5,991 nucleotides of DNA from the NCBI GenBank assembly GCA_003559395.1, contig PWLL01000057.1:1-5991 (forward strand), read 5' to 3'. The notes beneath the pieces are model-generated. The model saw nothing but the letters and a program-made list of their open reading frames with translations, did not search any database and was not told where the DNA came from. Origin of the DNA: Candidatus Iainarchaeum sp. GTDB taxonomy: Archaea; Iainarchaeota; Iainarchaeia; Iainarchaeales; CSSED10-239. Shown here in pieces: positions 615 through 5,991 of the stretch. Position 1 is the first letter of the stretch. Every line of letters starts with the position of its first letter. The translations under genes and the position numbers were made by a program.

Positions 615-3600
615 ATGGGAAGCTATAGTTATTTCAAACCAGCTGCACAACCCAGTGTCCCTTCTTGGTTTAAACCAGGTGTTGTTGCTGCGGCCACCAA
701 AAAAGTAGAACAACACACTGGTAGGTCTTTTATTAGTGGTAGTGGTGGAACAATTTCTAGTGGTGCTGGTGTTTCTAGAGGCAGTGGTGGTTCTGCACCC
801 GCTAGACCTGCTCCAATTACTTATTCTTCTAGTTTGTTAGGCCAAACATTTACAAGCAAAGACGCATTACAAAAAGCTGAAACCCAATACAAACAACAAC
901 AAGCAGAAATTGCTCGTCAAGAACAAGTAAAAAAAAGCGAAGACTTGAGAAAAACCTTGACACAAAAAGATTTCGAAACAAGACAATTTCGAGCAAGTCT
1001 AATGGCTGATGATGTATCAAGAACAATTCCAGCAAGCCAATTATTATCACAACAAGATACTAGAATGATTACCCCTCCTCCTCCAAGCACAAGAACCATA
1101 AAAGACAGGTACAAAATAGCAGAAGCTACTAGACAACCAGGTTGGATGAGAACAAGACTAGCTTACGGAAAACTTGGTCAAACAACAGGAACTTTTAGTT
1201 TATTAGGCGATTATGACGAAAAAAAACAAGCTGAATTAGAAAAAGATATTGAAAAAAAAACTGGTGAAATCGAAGCTCGTCAAGAAAGATATGAAAAAGC
1301 TAAAAAAGAAGCTACTAGAGATGATGAAAAATTACAAGAAGACTTAAAATTGTTGGATGAAAGAATCAAAAAAACAACTACTTATTGGCAAGAAAGAGAC
1401 ATAGAACCTGATAAACCAGGCATTACTCTTAGTGAAGAAGATTACAAGATTTATAAAACACAAACGATTCCTCTTTTAGAAAGATACCAAAAACAAGCCG
1501 ATGATTTAAAATATAAAATAGATGTTAGAAAATCCAAGTTACAGACTGTTGAATCTCTTGGTTTTGATGTTCGTTGGAGACAAAAAGATTTTGAAGATAA
1601 ATATGGAGAAGTTTTTAGTGCTGCTGATGATTTCGAAAAATCAAGAAAAGAATTGAGTGGTTACGGTTTGGATGCTGAAAAAATTAGGGGTTATGATATT
1701 GACAAAGCTGAATATGATTATTCTCCTTTTCAAAAAGGAAACCTTGATTTGGTTGCGAGTGGTGGTCTTGCTTTTTCTACTATTACTGGAAAAAAAGAAG
1801 AGTTAACAGAACCCGTTTTGAGAACACAAAAAGATATTGATACTCTAAAAACGTTTGGTGGTCAAAGAGCGTATAGAGAAACTTTGTTAAAACCTTTTGA
1901 TCCTATTGATGCTGGTTCTAGGATTGCTTCAAGTGCTATGGTTGTTGGGGGTATTGGTGCTGTTGGTGGGAGTGCTATAGGTTCAGGAATACCTTTAATA
2001 GGTACTGGTATTGGTGCGGTTAGTGGTTTTGTGGTTGGAGCTAAAGCTGGTGCTGTTGGTGGTATAGCTGATGTTGTTGCTAGTGAAACTGTTGGTCGTG
2101 TTTATGGTGATGAAAAGATTGGTCGGACTGCTGGTTTTGTTGCTGGTATTGTTGGTACTGTTGGAGCATCAAAATATTTTATGGGTAAAGAGTTTGCTAA
2201 GCGGACTGTTGTTAAAACACTAAAACCTACTATTGCACAACAAGTTCTTGAACAACGGGTTGTTGAAGGAAAAATTGTGACTGGTAAAGGATTGGTTAAA
2301 GGACAAATAATCCAACCTTATGAAATCAAGGTTTTGGCTAGTCAAGGAAAAATTGATAAGTTTATTGCTAAAGGTGTTTCAAAATTAACTGGTAAACCAC
2401 CAAAAACTGTTTTGAAAACTATTACTAGAGAACAAAAATTTATTGTTGAACAAGAATTAGATTTTATAGCTAAACAAGGACTAACAGTTTATCCTAGTGG
2501 AGATTTGGCTGCGACATCTAAACTTCCTGTTATTGGTGGTAAAAAAACTTTTTTTATAGCAGAATCTATTGCACCAACAACCAAGATTATTGAAACAACC
2601 AAGACAAGTCCTTTTAGAGAAAAACTTGCTAGTTTTATTATTCCAGGCAAAACAAAAGGTTTGGCTGCACAAGATGGAACAAAGTTTCAAAATTTTTGGA
2701 TTGACAAACCAAAAACAGTAACCCAAAAAATTGCTAGTCGTGTTAGAGGAGAAAAATTTGTTGACGATTCTTATTTCAGAGACATGGGGTTTTATCAACC
2801 AGTTTATCAAACTAGAGATGGTCGAGTTTTAACTTTCGTTGACAAGGTGAGCACGGTTTCGACTCCTAGAGGAATACAAATTACTCGTATGGTGGATTTG
2901 AAAGATGGTAAAGAGTTTTTGGGGACTTCTGGTTTTTGGGATTTTGGGAAAAAATTAACAGCAACACAGTTTGTTGGTAAAAGATTACCCGAAATCCTTA
3001 AACCCAGTGGTTCCAAAATCTTGTCTATTACTGGAGAAAAACCTCTTGCGTTGCCTGGAATAGTAACAGGAAAAGGAGTAACGAGTATGAGTTTTGCAGA
3101 AGCTTCTAAACAATTAACTCAACAAAAAGCGTTGTCTGTAGTGGCTAGTGGTCAGTTAAAACAAGTTAGTTTGGGTATACAAAAAGATGTGAGTGCTAGG
3201 AGTCTTGGTATTGTTGCTCCTGGTTATTTAAAGTCGAGTTATGGTGGTGGTATAGTATTGGCTAAAGCTGGTAGGATTAGAGGTTATGACGGTGCTGTGG
3301 ATTATACTGATGTTGGTGTTGATAGTGTTGGAACAGTTTCTAGACCAGCGAGTTTGTCTACACCGAGTGTTGGTGGCTTGACTAGTATTGATTTTAAAGA
3401 GCGTGTTGATGTTGGTGTGAAAGATGTTTTTGTTGATAGGACTAAGGTGTTTCAACCTTACAAAGTTTTTTCTCCTACAATTTCGAAAGTGGTTGTTGGT
3501 CAAAAACTTGGTTATGATAAGGTTGATAGGTTTAGGGTTGATGGTAAGATAGTTGATAGGTTGGATACTTCTCAAGATACTAGGCTTGTTGATAGGCTTG

Positions 3601-4061
3601 GCTTGGGTCAAGGAACTATTATGCAGGTTGGACAAGTTACGATGCAAGATACTAGGCTTGTTGATAGGTTAAGTTTAGTTGATAGGTTGGATACTCCAAG
3701 ACCAGTGATCGATTTTAAAATAAAAATCTCTCCACCAATCCCTCCACCTATTGTTGGTGGTGGCCTGCCTGGTTTTGGTAGGTTTGATGTTGGGTTTGGA
3801 GTGCCTAAACAACCGAGAAGAAGAAAAGCGGGTAGGGTTAGTCCTTTGTTTGCTATTAAAAGCGATTTTTATAGGAAGTTTGTTACAGGAGAAAAAGATT
3901 TGTTAGTATCAAAAGAAAACGTTGCGTTAGTAAAGGGTTTGAGAGCAAGAAAGGGTTCTTTGTTAGCGTTTATTCCGACAAAAGAATTGTTGGCTAAGAA
4001 AAAAAAGAGTAGAAAGAGTTTTTGGGAGGATTCTGGATGGTTGAAGAAGTTCGGTCTTTAA
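615..4061 (+). CDS. Large (1148 aa) mosaic structural-type protein of unknown family; candidates are a virion fibre or ejection protein, or a tape-measure-like protein
   Basis: Uninterrupted 3447-nt ORF. ATG 615 is the first start after the in-frame TGA at 606-608. GTGAT lies 5 nt upstream. Codon usage is consistent along the ORF. There is no signal peptide, no Walker A motif and no catalytic motif I recognise. Stop TAA at 4059-4061. Confidence 0.93.
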   Translation: MGSYSYFKPAAQPSVPSWFKPGVVAAATKKVEQHTGRSFISGSGGTISSGAGVSRGSGGSAPARPAPITYSSSLLGQTFTSKDALQKAETQYKQQQAEIARQEQVKKSEDLRKTLTQKDFETRQFRASLMADDVSRTIPASQLLSQQDTRMITPPPPSTRTIKDRYKIAEATRQPGWMRTRLAYGKLGQTTGTFSLLGDYDEKKQAELEKDIEKKTGEIEARQERYEKAKKEATRDDEKLQEDLKLLDERIKKTTTYWQERDIEPDKPGITLSEEDYKIYKTQTIPLLERYQKQADDLKYKIDVRKSKLQTVESLGFDVRWRQKDFEDKYGEVFSAADDFEKSRKELSGYGLDAEKIRGYDIDKAEYDYSPFQKGNLDLVASGGLAFSTITGKKEELTEPVLRTQKDIDTLKTFGGQRAYRETLLKPFDPIDAGSRIASSAMVVGGIGAVGGSAIGSGIPLIGTGIGAVSGFVVGAKAGAVGGIADVVASETVGRVYGDEKIGRTAGFVAGIVGTVGASKYFMGKEFAKRTVVKTLKPTIAQQVLEQRVVEGKIVTGKGLVKGQIIQPYEIKVLASQGKIDKFIAKGVSKLTGKPPKTVLKTITREQKFIVEQELDFIAKQGLTVYPSGDLAATSKLPVIGGKKTFFIAESIAPTTKIIETTKTSPFREKLASFIIPGKTKGLAAQDGTKFQNFWIDKPKTVTQKIASRVRGEKFVDDSYFRDMGFYQPVYQTRDGRVLTFVDKVSTVSTPRGIQITRMVDLKDGKEFLGTSGFWDFGKKLTATQFVGKRLPEILKPSGSKILSITGEKPLALPGIVTGKGVTSMSFAEASKQLTQQKALSVVASGQLKQVSLGIQKDVSARSLGIVAPGYLKSSYGGGIVLAKAGRIRGYDGAVDYTDVGVDSVGTVSRPASLSTPSVGGLTSIDFKERVDVGVKDVFVDRTKVFQPYKVFSPTISKVVVGQKLGYDKVDRFRVDGKIVDRLDTSQDTRLVDRLGLGQGTIMQVGQVTMQDTRLVDRLSLVDRLDTPRPVIDFKIKISPPIPPPIVGGGLPGFGRFDVGFGVPKQPRRRKAGRVSPLFAIKSDFYRKFVTGEKDLLVSKENVALVKGLRARKGSLLAFIPTKELLAKKKKSRKSFWEDSGWLKKFGL
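1212..1544 (+). other. K/E/Q-rich predicted coiled-coil region of the 1148-aa protein (aa ~200-310; a shorter one at aa ~80-125, nt 852-989)
   Basis: Sequences such as DEKKQAELEKDIEKKTGEIEARQERYEKAKKEATRDDEKLQEDLKLLDERIKK and KDALQKAETQYKQQQAEIARQEQVKKSEDLRK are charged, helix-favouring and free of Pro/Gly. Judged by eye; no coiled-coil predictor was run. Confidence 0.5.
1923..2171 (+). other. Glycine-zipper / GxxxG-rich hydrophobic segment (aa 437-519), a putative membrane-inserting hairpin
   Basis: IASSAMVVGGIGAVGGSAIGSGIPLIGTGIGAVSGFVVGAKAGAVGGIADVVA is about 53 residues with one Lys and one Asp as its only charges. A second stretch follows, TAGFVAGIVGTVGAS. The DNA is low-complexity GGT/GTT/GCT, with repeats TGCTGTTGGTGG (1958-1969 and 2051-2062) and GGTATTGGTGC (1950-1960 and 2008-2018). 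Confidence 0.7.
3522..3695 (+). repeat. In-frame VDR(L) repeat array with perfect 24-nt and 20-nt direct repeats inside the 1148-aa gene
   Basis: GTTGATAGG (Val-Asp-Arg) occurs at 3522, 3552, 3588, 3660 and 3678, plus an outlier at 3432, all in the coding frame. CAAGATACTAGGCTTGTTGATAGG is perfect at 3573-3596 and 3645-3668. TAGTTGATAGGTTGGATACT is perfect at 3550-3569 and 3676-3695. Confidence 0.9.
3807..4058 (+). other. Basic C-terminal tail of the 1148-aa protein, preceded by a PPIPPP hinge (3732-3749)
   Basis: KQPRRRKAGRVSPLFAIKSDFYRKFVTGEKDLLVSKENVALVKGLRARKGSLLAFIPTKELLAKKKKSRKSFWEDSGWLKKFGL is strongly K/R-rich. Its function (nucleic-acid or membrane-surface binding) is only inferred. 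Confidence 0.5.
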
Positions 4062-4177
4062 AAAAACGTTTGAAACGTAAGGGTTTGTTGATGGGTTTGG
4101 AGTGTTTGTCTCCTGAAGAAGAAGCTATTATTCAAAAGAACTTGTTGTATAGGTTAAAGAGGAGTATGAGAAAATGA
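4037..4177 (+). CDS. Unlisted 46-aa basic protein (MVEEVRSLKKRLKRKGLLMGLECLSPEEEAIIQKNLLYRLKRSMRK)
   Basis: Translated by hand; it falls below the ORF-track size cutoff. GGGAGGA at 4024-4030 lies 6 nt before ATG 4037. The ORF overlaps the last 25 nt of the giant gene. Its TGA (4175-4177) overlaps ATG 4174 of the next gene as ATGA. It fills an otherwise 112-nt gap in a tightly packed operon. It has 13 K/R against 6 E. An alternative internal start at ATG 4091 is possible. Confidence 0.5.
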   Translation: MVEEVRSLKKRLKRKGLLMGLECLSPEEEAIIQKNLLYRLKRSMRK

Positions 4178-4383
4178 ATTTTTTGTACGGTTTCATAATG
4201 TTTTTTATTGGATTGATTACTATTGTTGCTTTTCTTCCAATGTATAACGAGGTTATTTCACTTATCCCTTATTCGGGTATTGTTATTACTTTGTGTGGGG
4301 TAATGGTTTTGTTACTCGTAGTTGGTTTAATTTATCGTTTATACGCTGATAGCGTTTATACTGGTACAGGAGGGAGAATATGA
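4174..4383 (+). CDS. Small two-TM hydrophobic protein, paralogue A (69 aa); candidate capsid or membrane protein, or a holin-like protein
   Basis: GAGGAG at 4159-4164 lies 9 nt upstream of ATG 4174. Two hydrophobic helices are present, FLYGFIMFFIGLITIVAFLPM and IVITLCGVMVLLLVVGLIYRLY. It shares the block IGLIxIVAFLPxxN with the next gene. Its stop TGA (4381-4383) overlaps the next ATG. Confidence 0.85.
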   Translation: MNFLYGFIMFFIGLITIVAFLPMYNEVISLIPYSGIVITLCGVMVLLLVVGLIYRLYADSVYTGTGGRI

Positions 4384-4637
4384 ATTGGTTAAACAAACGA
4401 GGTCAAGGAAGCATTTTTTCGTTTTTCACCTTGTTAATCGGGTTGATTTTAATCGTGGCTTTTTTGCCATTGTTGAACGACTTGGTTGCTATTGGTGTTG
4501 CGAGTAATATGAGTGCTCTTGGTTTTGGGTCAATAATTAATTTGATGCTTGGGATGACAGGAATACTTTTAGTATTATTGTTTTTCATGGGTGTTATTAG
4601 TGATTTCCAAACAAGACAACAATATTATGGACCATAA
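4380..4637 (+). CDS. Small two-TM hydrophobic protein, paralogue B (85 aa)
   Basis: AGGAGGG at 4368-4374 lies 5 nt upstream of ATG 4380, which forms an ATGA overlap with the upstream stop. It has a short basic N-terminus (NKRGQGS). Its two helices are IFSFFTLLIGLILIVAFLPLL and IINLMLGMTGILLVLLFFMGVI. Stop TAA at 4635-4637. Confidence 0.85.
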   Translation: MNWLNKRGQGSIFSFFTLLIGLILIVAFLPLLNDLVAIGVASNMSALGFGSIINLMLGMTGILLVLLFFMGVISDFQTRQQYYGP

Positions 4638-4651
4638 AATGGTTTTTTTTT
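4631..4651 (+). terminator. Short hairpin plus T-run at the end of the operon
   Basis: ACCAT (4631-4635), AAA loop, ATGGT (4639-4643), running into a T9 tract (4643-4651) immediately after the stop codon. The stem is only 5 bp. The T-run alone would fit archaeal oligo-T termination. Confidence 0.5.
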
Positions 4652-4668
4652 GGGAAGCTTGAACAAAG

Positions 4669-4678
4669 TTTTTTTTTT
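4669..4678 (+). terminator. Second oligo-T tract (T10), a possible back-up terminator
   Basis: T10 at 4669-4678 with no convincing upstream hairpin. A third tract, T8, lies at 4751-4758 in a similar context (AAAGTTTTTTTTGA). Confidence 0.35.
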
Positions 4679-4689
4679 GAGGAGAATGA

Positions 4690-4701
4690 GTGTGTGTGTG
4701 T
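4690..4701. repeat. (GT)6 dinucleotide microsatellite in the intergenic region
   Basis: GTGTGTGTGTGT read directly at 4690-4701, between the T10 tract and the LamG gene. Function unknown. Confidence 0.9.
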
Positions 4702-4793: not shown

Positions 4794-4856
4794 ATGAATT
4801 ATAAACTTCTTTTTGTTGGAGTATTATTCTTGTTTTTAATAGGAAGCGTACACGCT
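4794..4856 (+). other. Predicted Sec-type signal peptide (aa 1-21, cleavage after VHA)
   Basis: Lys at position 4, hydrophobic core LLFVGVLFLFLIG, and small residues at -3/-1 (V-H-A) before SLTDD. Confidence 0.7.
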
Positions 4857-5991
4857 AGTTTAACAGACGACTTGGTTTCTTATTATAAATTAGATGGAAC
4901 AACAGGTGTTGTTGTAGACGAACTTGGAACTAATGACGGAACTAATTATGGTGCAACACGAGGAGTAACAGGAATAATTAATAATGCTTTTGAATTTGAC
5001 GGAACAAATGATTATGTTATAAGTGATTTTGATTTAGATGATTATCCTTTTAGTTTTTCTGGATGGTTTTATATACCCGAAGGAAGTAGTGGTGGTGTAG
5101 TTATGACTATTTCAGATATAACAGCACCTAATAGACATGTATATATTAGTGCTTCTGAAATTAATGAAACAATAACATTATTAGTAAGAATGGATCCATC
5201 TGGATCAGAAGAATATGCATATATAATAAAAGATATTGAGAGTATAAATCTTGTTGAAAAATGGATTCATGTAACAGGTGTTTGGGTGAGTTCAAGTGAA
5301 AGGTATTTATATGTTAATGGAGAAATTGTGACTGGTGGAGATGATACTAAACAAACTAATTCATTTAATACTAATATAAACAAATTTGTTCTTGGCAGAA
5401 GATATACTAGTTATGGAACCCAAAATTATTTTGATGGTAAAATAGACGAGGTTGGTATTTGGTCTCGTGCTTTAACAAGCAATGAAATAACAACTTTATA
5501 TAATAGTGGTTCAGGTTTAACATATCCTTTTACTGAGGTTAATGCTAATTTTGATTTTAGTTTAAATTACGAAACAGCAACTGCGACTTTAACAGATACC
5601 TCGACTACAACAGATGCTGTTGAAATTACTAATTGGTTATGGACAATAGACGGAAACACTTTATCAACAGACCAAAACACTAGTTTTGTTTTCACAGCAA
5701 ACACAGATTATAACATAGGATTATTTGTTGATACAAACGTTCCTGATTTAAATTCACAAATATATAAAACAATTAGTATTCCTGGAACAGCAAACTTTAC
5801 TTTTTATGATGAAGACACAGAAGCACTACTAAACGATGTTGTTTACACTATTAGTCCAAGCATTAATGGTGTTAGTGGGGGAACACTAACAGACACAAAC
5901 ACACTAGACTTAAACTTGCAAGGAATAACAAGCCAAGAATACACTTTTACATTTAGCAAAGAAAACTACGGAACAAGAACCTACCAAACCA
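4794..5991 (+). CDS. Secreted LamG (concanavalin A-like lectin) / PKD-like / beta-sandwich surface protein, 3'-truncated by the window edge
   Basis: Translated by hand: 399 codons without a stop, from ATG 4794 to the window end. It is missing from the ORF track because no stop lies in the window. It has a strong SD. N-terminus MNYKLLFVGVLFLFLIGSVHA|SL. It then shows Laminin_G_3 hallmarks: LVSYYKLDG..DELGTNDGTNYGA...AFEFDGTNDYV ... YFDGKIDEVGIWSRALTSNEITTLYN. Confidence 0.92.
   Translation, partial: MNYKLLFVGVLFLFLIGSVHASLTDDLVSYYKLDGTTGVVVDELGTNDGTNYGATRGVTGIINNAFEFDGTNDYVISDFDLDDYPFSFSGWFYIPEGSSGGVVMTISDITAPNRHVYISASEINETITLLVRMDPSGSEEYAYIIKDIESINLVEKWIHVTGVWVSSSERYLYVNGEIVTGGDDTKQTNSFNTNINKFVLGRRYTSYGTQNYFDGKIDEVGIWSRALTSNEITTLYNSGSGLTYPFTEVNANFDFSLNYETATATLTDTSTTTDAVEITNWLWTIDGNTLSTDQNTSFVFTANTDYNIGLFVDTNVPDLNSQIYKTISIPGTANFTFYDEDTEALLNDVVYTISPSINGVSGGTLTDTNTLDLNLQGITSQEYTFTFSKENYGTRTYQT
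4860..5531 (+). other. LamG / Laminin_G_3 (concanavalin A-like lectin/glucanase fold) domain, aa ~23-246
   Basis: The motif pattern typical of PF13385-type domains is present. It opens with L..YY.LDG, then G.NDGT..GA and A..FDG..DYV. It continues with W.H..GV, LY.NG and FDG.IDEV.IW.RALT..EI..LY. Recognised by eye; no HMM was run. Confidence 0.8.
5538..5783 (+). other. PKD-like Ig-fold domain, aa ~249-330
   Basis: ANFDFSLNYETATATLTDTSTTTDAVEITNWLWTIDGNTLSTDQNTSFVFTANTDYNIGLFVDTN..SQIYKTISI follows the PKD pattern: A.F...(strand).F.D.S......W.W.FGDG......H.F...G.Y.V.L.V.D......I.V. The core here reads W-L-W-T-I-D-G, a degenerate form of the WDFGDG core. Confidence 0.55.
5784..5991 (+). other. 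Start of a further beta-sandwich domain (carboxypeptidase-regulatory-like pattern), truncated
   Basis: FTFYDEDTEALLNDVVYTISPSINGVSGGTLTDTNTLDLNLQGITSQEYTFTFSKENYGTRTY resembles the V.D..T..PL..A.V......TD.NG...L..L..G.Y...S..GY pattern. This is a weak call made by eye. Confidence 0.3.

Follow-up and report, generated by a model that had tools for sequence, protein, structure and literature searches.

What are the two small, adjacent, hydrophobic proteins that follow a giant gene on a short archaeal contig, and do they belong to a virus or to a cell? The question is raised by contig PWLL01000057.1 of assembly GCA_003559395.1 (Candidatus Iainarchaeum sp.), whose entire length of 5,991 nucleotides (nt) is the window analyzed here. 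Its open reading frame (ORF) list comprises five genes, all on the plus strand, among them a giant ORF of 1148 amino acids (nt 615 to 4061), mini-protein A of 69 amino acids (nt 4174 to 4383) and mini-protein B of 85 amino acids (nt 4380 to 4637). A preliminary description had proposed that A and B are either hydrophobic capsid proteins of a spindle-shaped virus or a holin/antiholin pair. The first suggestion gained support from the genomic context, i.e., the giant gene, an adhesin gene, the mobile-element-like character of related contigs and the ATPase of a relative designated L050, and the second did not hold. On our estimate, there is an even chance that A and B represent the minor- and major-type hairpin capsid proteins, respectively, of an undescribed archaeal virus, provirus or virus-like mobile element of the spindle-shaped (lemon-shaped) type.

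The common origin of the two proteins had been deduced from a shared sequence block, and the ORFs, the block and its codon usage were all recovered as described. The blocks IGLITIVAFLPMYN in A (nt 4207 to 4248) and IGLILIVAFLPLLN in B (nt 4437 to 4478) are identical in 11 of 14 residues and 30 of 42 nucleotides, and five of the conserved residues are specified by different synonymous codons (ATT/ATC, GGA/GGG, ATT/ATC, GTT/GTG, and CTT/TTG). An identity of 11/14 was reached by none of 2000 shuffles of B (maximum 9, mean 5.7), and BLASTP aligned A and B with 12 identities over 27 positions (E 1e-6). Profile-profile comparison including database homologues yielded a probability of 95% (E 2.8e-8), and hhalign with 19 A and 21 B orthologues one of 93.5% (E 2.3e-7) over 62 columns. 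Since the alignment of the two family profiles extends over both helices, the duplication is real and old, as had been claimed. The assumed selection on the protein level is reflected in low ratios of nonsynonymous to synonymous substitution rates (dN/dS), which amount to 0.05 to 0.13 in most pairs of B orthologues (0.28 in one pair) and to 0.2 to 0.5 in A orthologues, with dS near saturation in these comparisons. The ratios indicate strong purifying selection on B and weaker purifying selection on A.

The proposed topology of helix, proline-containing turn, helix and polar tail was borne out by hydropathy analysis and AlphaFold2 modeling. Both proteins contain two hydrophobic segments whose Kyte-Doolittle values in 19-residue windows reach 2.5 to 2.95, which is typical of membrane-spanning stretches, and the predicted helices span residues 2 to 28 and 34 to 65 in A (pLDDT 72) and residues 6 to 41 and 49 to 83 in B (pLDDT 74). 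A and B thus have the size and shape of hairpin capsid proteins, i.e., about 70 to 90 amino acids, two hydrophobic helices and a short loop. Two or three charged residues follow helix 2 in each tail (...YRLYADSVYTGTGGRI in A and ...SDFQTRQQYYGP in B), and a tail of the form D-F-Q-x-R-Q-x-Y is common to the B orthologues. The paralogues differ at the N terminus. A orthologues begin directly at helix 1, whereas B orthologues carry an unconserved extension of 2 to more than 50 residues that ends in an invariant N-x-[KR]-G-Q. In the window this [KR]-G-Q motif is K6-R7-G8-Q9 (nt 4395 to 4406), located just before helix 1 of B; its glycine and glutamine are invariant in 8 database homologues and the glutamine in 15. 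The motif is a candidate maturation site, with a putative cleavage after G8. In the loop between the helices, the asparagine of B is nearly invariant, being shared by at least 90% of 32 diverse members of the family. A complete N-x-S/T sequon, in the window N43-M44-S45 (nt 4506 to 4514), is found in 17 of 21 orthologues and lacks its Ser/Thr in 4 of 21, which suggests that B may be N-glycosylated at this position.

A HMMER scan of 1.84 billion representative proteins detected 40 family clusters at E < 1e-3, 38 of which have a length of 70 to 106 amino acids, and exact or related copies were located on more than 35 metagenome contigs from lake, sediment and other samples (individual loci are designated L001, L002, etc.). 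Searches of Pfam, PHROGs and NCBIfam with A, B and their distant relatives returned only noise, sequence and profile searches of the PDB gave no match to A or B, and neither megablast nor tblastn with the window, B and the giant protein matched any phage or archaeal virus record in GenBank. Two scans of 185,579 GTDB species genomes with patterns specific for the family likewise detected no member. A and B constitute a new protein family, but one of an already known kind.

Conservation extends from the proteins to their arrangement. The order giant gene, A, B, large secreted or LamG protein is maintained in more than 35 loci in which B is down to about 30% identical, and wherever the contig provides enough DNA, an A-type gene lies directly 5' of B and a giant ORF of 890 to 2500 amino acids directly 5' of A. 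In L002 to L009, as in the window, A ends and B begins within a shared ATGA (nt 4380 to 4383 of the window), a four-nucleotide overlap of stop and start codons from which translational coupling of A and B may be inferred. Two oligo-T runs directly 3' of B (nt 4643 to 4678; T9 at 4643 to 4651 and T10 at 4669 to 4678) probably mark the archaeal-type end of a giant-A-B transcription unit; a bacterial-type hairpin terminator was not found in the window. The preliminary description had asked whether homologues always co-occur with a giant gene and a LamG gene. The association holds for the giant gene in all loci with enough upstream DNA, and for LamG only in some, namely, the window, L002, L011/L012, L048/L049 and L053. 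A second type of downstream region encodes a secreted protein of about 220 to 234 amino acids and, on contigs that reach far enough, a large secreted protein of more than 1700 amino acids thereafter (L018, L019 and L028; the L035 contig ends after the downstream 234-amino-acid secreted protein), and a third type another protein of more than 1000 amino acids (L032 and L050). A and B are hence linked to a large gene of the receptor-binding or terminal-fibre type. In the window, the downstream gene (nt 4794 to 5991, cut by the contig end) specifies a secreted protein with a signal-like hydrophobic segment at its start, a Laminin_G_3 domain (PF13385, E 9.9e-21) and a PKD-like domain (PKD_3, E 9e-5). 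It matches phrog_8510, annotated as "virion structural protein" (E 1.6e-10), and is a candidate receptor-binding adhesin.

The giant protein begins with a coiled coil, contains a glycine-rich hydrophobic stretch around amino acids 440 to 520 and has no significant family or PDB match. Its counterpart in L002 (L002:544-3801) is 30% identical, compared with 93% for B of the same locus, and the last 110 or so amino acids (residues ~1035 to 1148; nt 3717 to 4058) are the only part that BLASTP aligns across nearly all loci. A variable protein with a conserved C terminus is what one would expect of a receptor-binding protein whose anchor is conserved; the giant protein is probably an adsorption or tail-type structural protein, and its C-terminal region a candidate anchor domain. 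The divergence itself suggests rapid diversification or module swapping of the adsorption protein.

Do the related contigs resemble viruses? The question of a spindle-virus-type ATPase was addressed on the contigs of relatives, the window being limited to 5,991 nt. More distant relatives reside on contigs of 17 to 25 kb with many small ORFs, mostly on one strand. The 23-kb contig of L050 encodes Mom, a D5_N/DUF5906 primase-helicase and many small ORFs, all on the same strand. About 9 kb downstream of B, it encodes a P-loop protein that matches phrog_5484 (E 4.6e-6), the family of B251 of SSV1 (a spindle-shaped virus of Sulfolobus; E 5e-101) and gp16 of His1 (E 3e-62). The combination of this AAA+ ATPase and a hairpin capsid protein is regarded as the signature of spindle-shaped viruses (10.1101/2025.02.15.638363). 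Other relatives harbor a tyrosine integrase, a methyltransferase and two LamG proteins (L048, 25.6 kb) or a 1591-amino-acid LamG protein, a methyltransferase and a PMT_2 glycosyltransferase (L053, 17.5 kb), and in L013/L014, whose B is 59% identical to that of the window, a D5-like helicase gene lies 1.4 kb downstream of B. tRNA genes were absent from the long loci, and terminal direct or inverted repeats were absent from whole contigs.

Several results weigh against a capsid role. Neither protein matched the PHROG families of the fusellovirus capsid proteins VP1 and VP3 (phrog_11172 and phrog_5402), hhalign comparison of the A and B profiles with eight fusellovirus VP1/VP3 proteins gave probabilities of 1 to 5%, and VP21 of His1 aligned with A/B at an E value of 0.02. 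The broad family scored 50% (E 1.6e-4) against fusellovirus capsid proteins and the reversed control 28% (E 6.5e-4). A Foldseek search with the model of B, a method that is uninformative for two-helix hairpins, returned nothing below an E value of 0.8 from the PDB and BFVD, and IMG/VR, when scanned with B alone and also with an alignment of 15 sequences, yielded no related contig. The spindle-type ATPase was present in a single distant relative (L050) and in none of the fetched parts of L018, L028, L032, L048 and L053; even there it was detected by the PHROG profile only, as phmmer searches of all locus ORFs with B251 of SSV1 and gp16 of His1 were negative. In L018, L024 and L035, the module is co-oriented beside cellular-looking genes for ERCC4/XPF, serine hydroxymethyltransferase (SHMT), Band 7, YbjQ and glycosyltransferase family 4 (GT4) proteins, and L018 and L028 derive from contigs of 36 and 71 kb; these loci could be proviruses, larger viruses or chromosomal. 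Finally, a second hairpin family on the same elements, designated C, could provide the true major capsid protein, in which case A and B would have an accessory role in the virion or membrane.

For the distant family member P0047, a probability of 89% against known capsid proteins was accompanied by 73% for the reversed sequence. Homology of A and B to the capsid proteins of fuselloviruses or His1 is not claimed, because the reversed controls score almost as high. As there is no demonstrable homology, the capsid role is deduced from architecture and context and not from family membership.

Family C was found by scanning for [KR]-G-Q followed by a hydrophobic stretch. Its members, two-helix hairpins of 67 to 91 amino acids with the motif at the N terminus, are encoded on A/B-bearing elements as tandem pairs in L050 (16178-16426 and 16468-16704) and L053 (15596-15802 and 15896-16099) and as a single copy in L032 (15339-15614). 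With an hhalign probability of 94.9% against the broad A/B family (E 4.6e-8), these elements encode up to four hairpin paralogues, and the recurrence of [KR]-G-Q in two families argues for a processing signal. Family C is colinear with His1 VP21 (E 0.0022 versus 0.17 for the reversed control), and the start of its helix 2 (...NLLPL... or LIPLVLVG) resembles NLVPLF of SSV1 and ELLPLL of His1. Accordingly, A and B may be virion-associated membrane proteins outside the lattice, either as anchor or adaptor of the giant protein or as part of the envelope or matrix of an element that is pleomorphic or of the vesicle type, and the lattice would be formed by C. We regard this alternative as possible, with a clearly smaller probability than the lattice role of A and B. 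It would agree with the invariable attachment of A/B to the 3' end of a giant gene that is conserved only at the C terminus, and with the report that AAA+ ATPases related to B251 also occur in pleomorphic archaeal viruses (10.1101/2025.02.15.638363). It accounts less well for the conservation of B, which exceeds that of all other genes of the module (dN/dS about 0.05 to 0.13), as expected of a major lattice protein, and for a pair of one processed-type and one unprocessed-type paralogue that mirrors VP1 and VP3. Moreover, C belongs to the superfamily of A and B, so that the capsid and the accessory roles are not sharply separable.

Could the module instead be a chromosomal cell-surface system of DPANN-like archaea, with the giant and LamG proteins as adhesins and A/B as pilin-like or anchor subunits exported via a class III (prepilin-type) signal? 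The co-orientation with cellular-looking genes in L024, L035 and L018 and the 36- and 71-kb contigs of L018 and L028 speak for this possibility. The ERCC4 protein is most similar to XPF and Hef of archaea, and the SHMT is bacterial in type; the host is therefore probably a low-GC archaeon. The sequence [KR]-G-Q plus a hydrophobic helix also resembles archaeal class III signal peptides as described by the FlaFind and EppA rules; the +2 residue is usually glycine, which is not known to belong to the FlaFind set. A cellular system is nevertheless unlikely, since the family occurs in none of the 185,579 GTDB species representatives and small contigs hold a primase-helicase, an integrase, Mom and a B251-type ATPase. 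Pilin, archaellin or Class_IIIsignal matches were not obtained from Pfam or NCBIfam even at an E value of 1, a pilus ATPase or platform gene was found in no locus, A has no motif, and where a pilin would have its globular domain there is a second transmembrane helix.

Very improbable is the interpretation of A and B as conjugative pilins of the VirB2/TraA (CedA1/TedC) kind that belong to an integrative conjugative element. Small two-helix hydrophobic hairpins, one of them with an N-terminal leader, on elements with an integrase would be in keeping with such a function, but neither a VirB4, CedB or TraG-type ATPase nor a VirB6-like protein was found among 47 ORFs in about 60 kb of L048, L050 and L053. 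Scanning all loci for the Walker-A motif also revealed no VirB4/CedB-type ATPase, and a profile search of all PDB chains, a set that by its description should include the solved pilus subunits, gave no hit even at an E value of 10. A holin/antiholin pair that permeabilizes the host membrane at lysis can be rejected, despite the size, the adjacency of the paralogues and a two-transmembrane-helix topology like that of class II holins and pinholins, because none of the more than 35 loci has an endolysin, pseudomurein endopeptidase or spanin gene next to the pair (Pfam and PHROG scans of the neighbors in the window, L018, L024, L028, L032, L035, L048, L050 and L053 found no lysis enzyme, and an adjacent endolysin is what the preliminary description had counted in favor of a holin; the sole match to an "Rz-like spanin," E 0.009, stems from L035, where it concerns a coiled-coil protein encoded 7 kb upstream), the tails are polar and not strongly basic, B has a very low dN/dS and is conserved over long range, and the pair lies within a structural or adhesin module.

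How would a hairpin capsid of A and B be built? Starting from the observed paralogy, predicted hairpins, selection pattern, gene order and mobile-element-like content, we infer all of the following steps. The giant gene, A and B would be co-transcribed, and A and B coupled in translation by the ATGA overlap. As hairpins, both proteins would be inserted into the host membrane, their loop facing outward and their termini inward. B would be made as a precursor whose variable N-terminal extension is cut off between G and Q of the invariant [KR]-G-Q, would possibly be N-glycosylated on the loop asparagine, and would then polymerize by hydrophobic helix-helix contacts into a capsid lattice, like VP1 of fuselloviruses. 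A might serve as a minor or shape-modulating capsid protein, like VP3, because it has no extension and evolves faster. The giant protein and the downstream LamG/PKD protein may together form the terminal adsorption structure.

The putative processing step leads to a more general and rather doubtful proposal, namely, that the hairpin capsid proteins of spindle-shaped-type archaeal viruses are class III signal-peptide proteins that owe their maturation to a prepilin peptidase of the host (PibD/EppA/FlaK type). The motif [KR]-G/Q of B and C and the experimentally known site T-K-G/E-A of SSV1 VP1 (slashes denote the cleavage position) follow a common rule, with K or R at -2, G or A at -1 and a hydrophobic helix thereafter. 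A literature search yielded nothing relevant that links class III signal peptides or PibD with VP1 maturation, and the protease responsible has been reported as unknown (PMC5748691). If the proposal were true, this protease would be identified, and the superfamily of A, B and C would mark a new family-level virus lineage in low-GC, possibly DPANN, archaea of anoxic or saline sediments. The shared K/R-G and Q/E motif offers a directly testable hypothesis of capsid maturation.

The remaining features of the window and its relatives are of a more descriptive nature. A 105-amino-acid coiled-coil protein is encoded on the plus strand 5' of the giant gene (nt 95 to 412); it has only weak coiled-coil-type Pfam and PHROG matches and a 111-amino-acid counterpart at the equivalent place in L002. 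A basic ORF of 51 codons (nt 4022 to 4177) overlaps the end of the giant gene and stops at the start codon of A, and gene calling on the identical Logan contig L001 picked up a 46-amino-acid form of it. The ORF probably does not represent a genuine gene, as it is missing from L002 to L009, where A directly overlaps the stop codon of the giant gene. Ribosome-binding sites resembling GGAGG lie ahead of A, B and the LamG gene, and a (GT)6 run (nt 4690 to 4701) is located in the spacer between the latter two. The window has a GC content of 35%, and its coding strand shows a strong bias of G over C with a GC skew of about +0.26 overall and up to +0.5. Rfam families and notable tandem repeats were not detected in the window.

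On related contigs, the regions on both sides of the module show some individual features. A conserved block upstream of the module (L024:1995-3841, L035:1757-3769 and L018:15-1196) comprises the ERCC4/XPF-type nuclease (L024 and L035), a coiled-coil membrane protein of about 200 amino acids and two small Zn-ribbon (CxxC) proteins. In L018 and L028 it is followed by a protein of about 450 to 590 amino acids that starts with ...GKTDYFSSIDKLADDF..., with a 496-amino-acid counterpart in L024, and in L035 the bacterial-type SHMT gene lies directly 5' of the block. Directly downstream of B, an extra A-type paralogue of 80 amino acids is encoded on the minus strand in L017 (922-1164), in addition to the usual upstream A. 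Some loci have selfish elements at this site. A homing-endonuclease-like gene with a NUMOD3 motif follows B immediately on the opposite strand in L018 (10258-11004, minus strand) and L019 (8357-9103). At the same position, judging by their sequences, L024 (10354-10773) and L025 (6344-7917) carry a TnpA-like gene of the IS200/IS605 type and, after it, a TnpB-like gene. Glycosyltransferase genes traveling with the module would fit glycosylated virion or surface proteins. They include a GT4 (AglH-like) gene in L018 (1205-2188) and a PMT_2-like dolichyl-phosphate-mannose transferase, probably the membrane protein of about 370 amino acids in L053 (14393-15505); a similar membrane protein in L032 (14198-15307) has no Pfam match.

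Spindle-shaped viruses are specific for archaea and are thought to be ancient, and their small, hydrophobic capsid proteins escape standard annotation. The module of giant gene, A, B and adhesin provides a handle by which a whole group of unbinned elements could be found in metagenomes of sediments, saline lakes and digesters and subsequently assigned to hosts. A hypervariable giant protein next to a strongly conserved lattice-type protein usefully marks an adsorption apparatus.

Which known systems does the module resemble? With archaeal class III signal-peptide proteins, B shares a short positive N terminus, [KR]-G, Q and a long hydrophobic helix; it is unlike type IV pilins and archaellins in its second transmembrane helix in place of a globular domain, in the lack of pilus machinery nearby and in having a paralogue, A, without the signal. 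The spindle-shaped Thermococcales viruses of the PAV1/TPV1 type likewise combine a small hydrophobic capsid gene with large presumed adhesins of the concanavalin-A/LamG type. ORF121 of PAV1 is longer (121 amino acids), and its hhalign match to A is marginal and partial (42%, E 2.6e-4, 40 columns), with none to B. Hairpins of about 80 amino acids are also the capsid proteins of His1 (VP21), Wyrdviridae and the nanohaloarchaeal DNSV, the latter two compared by description, and the L050 relative encodes an ATPase of the gp16/B251 family like His1 and SSV1. Wyrdviridae and DNSV have one or two hairpin paralogues, an adhesin and an AAA+ ATPase (10.1101/2021.07.29.453957; 10.1101/2025.02.15.638363), and DNSV has in addition a gene of more than 1900 codons. 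Tandem hairpin paralogues accompanied by a very large gene and an AAA+ ATPase are on record for Wyrdviridae as well as for nanohaloarchaeal spindle-shaped viruses (10.1101/2025.02.15.638363; 10.1101/2021.07.29.453957).

A close parallel is provided by the Fuselloviridae, even if there are differences. In SSV1, the end-filament gene C792 is followed by three small genes and by VP1, VP3 and VP2, i.e., the unprocessed-type paralogue comes second, whereas in our module it is A that comes first. The N-terminal extension of B is much shorter than that of VP1, and the low-GC sequences of A and B come from mesophilic, anoxic or saline metagenomes and not from thermoacidophiles. VP1 N termini comprise 15 to 66 residues and are poorly conserved save for a few residues before the site, mature VP1 starts at the conserved glutamate, and a VP1 E66Q mutant remains infectious (PMC5748691). 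The SSV1 VP1 precursor reads ...KLTKG/EATNIGVLLGLFIFILIGIVLLPVIVSQVNNLTSG...NAT...(helix 2)...AYKIYKD, with the site ...TKG/EATNIG, and VP3 begins at helix 1. In the same way, one paralogue of the A/B pair has a variable, poorly conserved extension that ends in a K-G and E/Q type of site, and the other begins at helix 1. In both systems, tandem paralogues of about 70 to 90 amino acids (mature form in the case of VP1) contain a pair of hydrophobic helices and end in a short polar tail; proline and then asparagine follow helix 1, and N-x-S/T sequons occur in the loop. A large gene of the filament or tailspike type precedes the pair on the same strand, as C792 does in SSV1. In SSV19, the 84-residue hairpin of VP1 (helices 15 to 44 and 54 to 83) packs via hydrophobic contacts into seven helical strands and sits on a helical bundle at the C terminus of the 1236-residue tailspike VP4 (PMC9351363), and the helix lengths of B match those of this protein.

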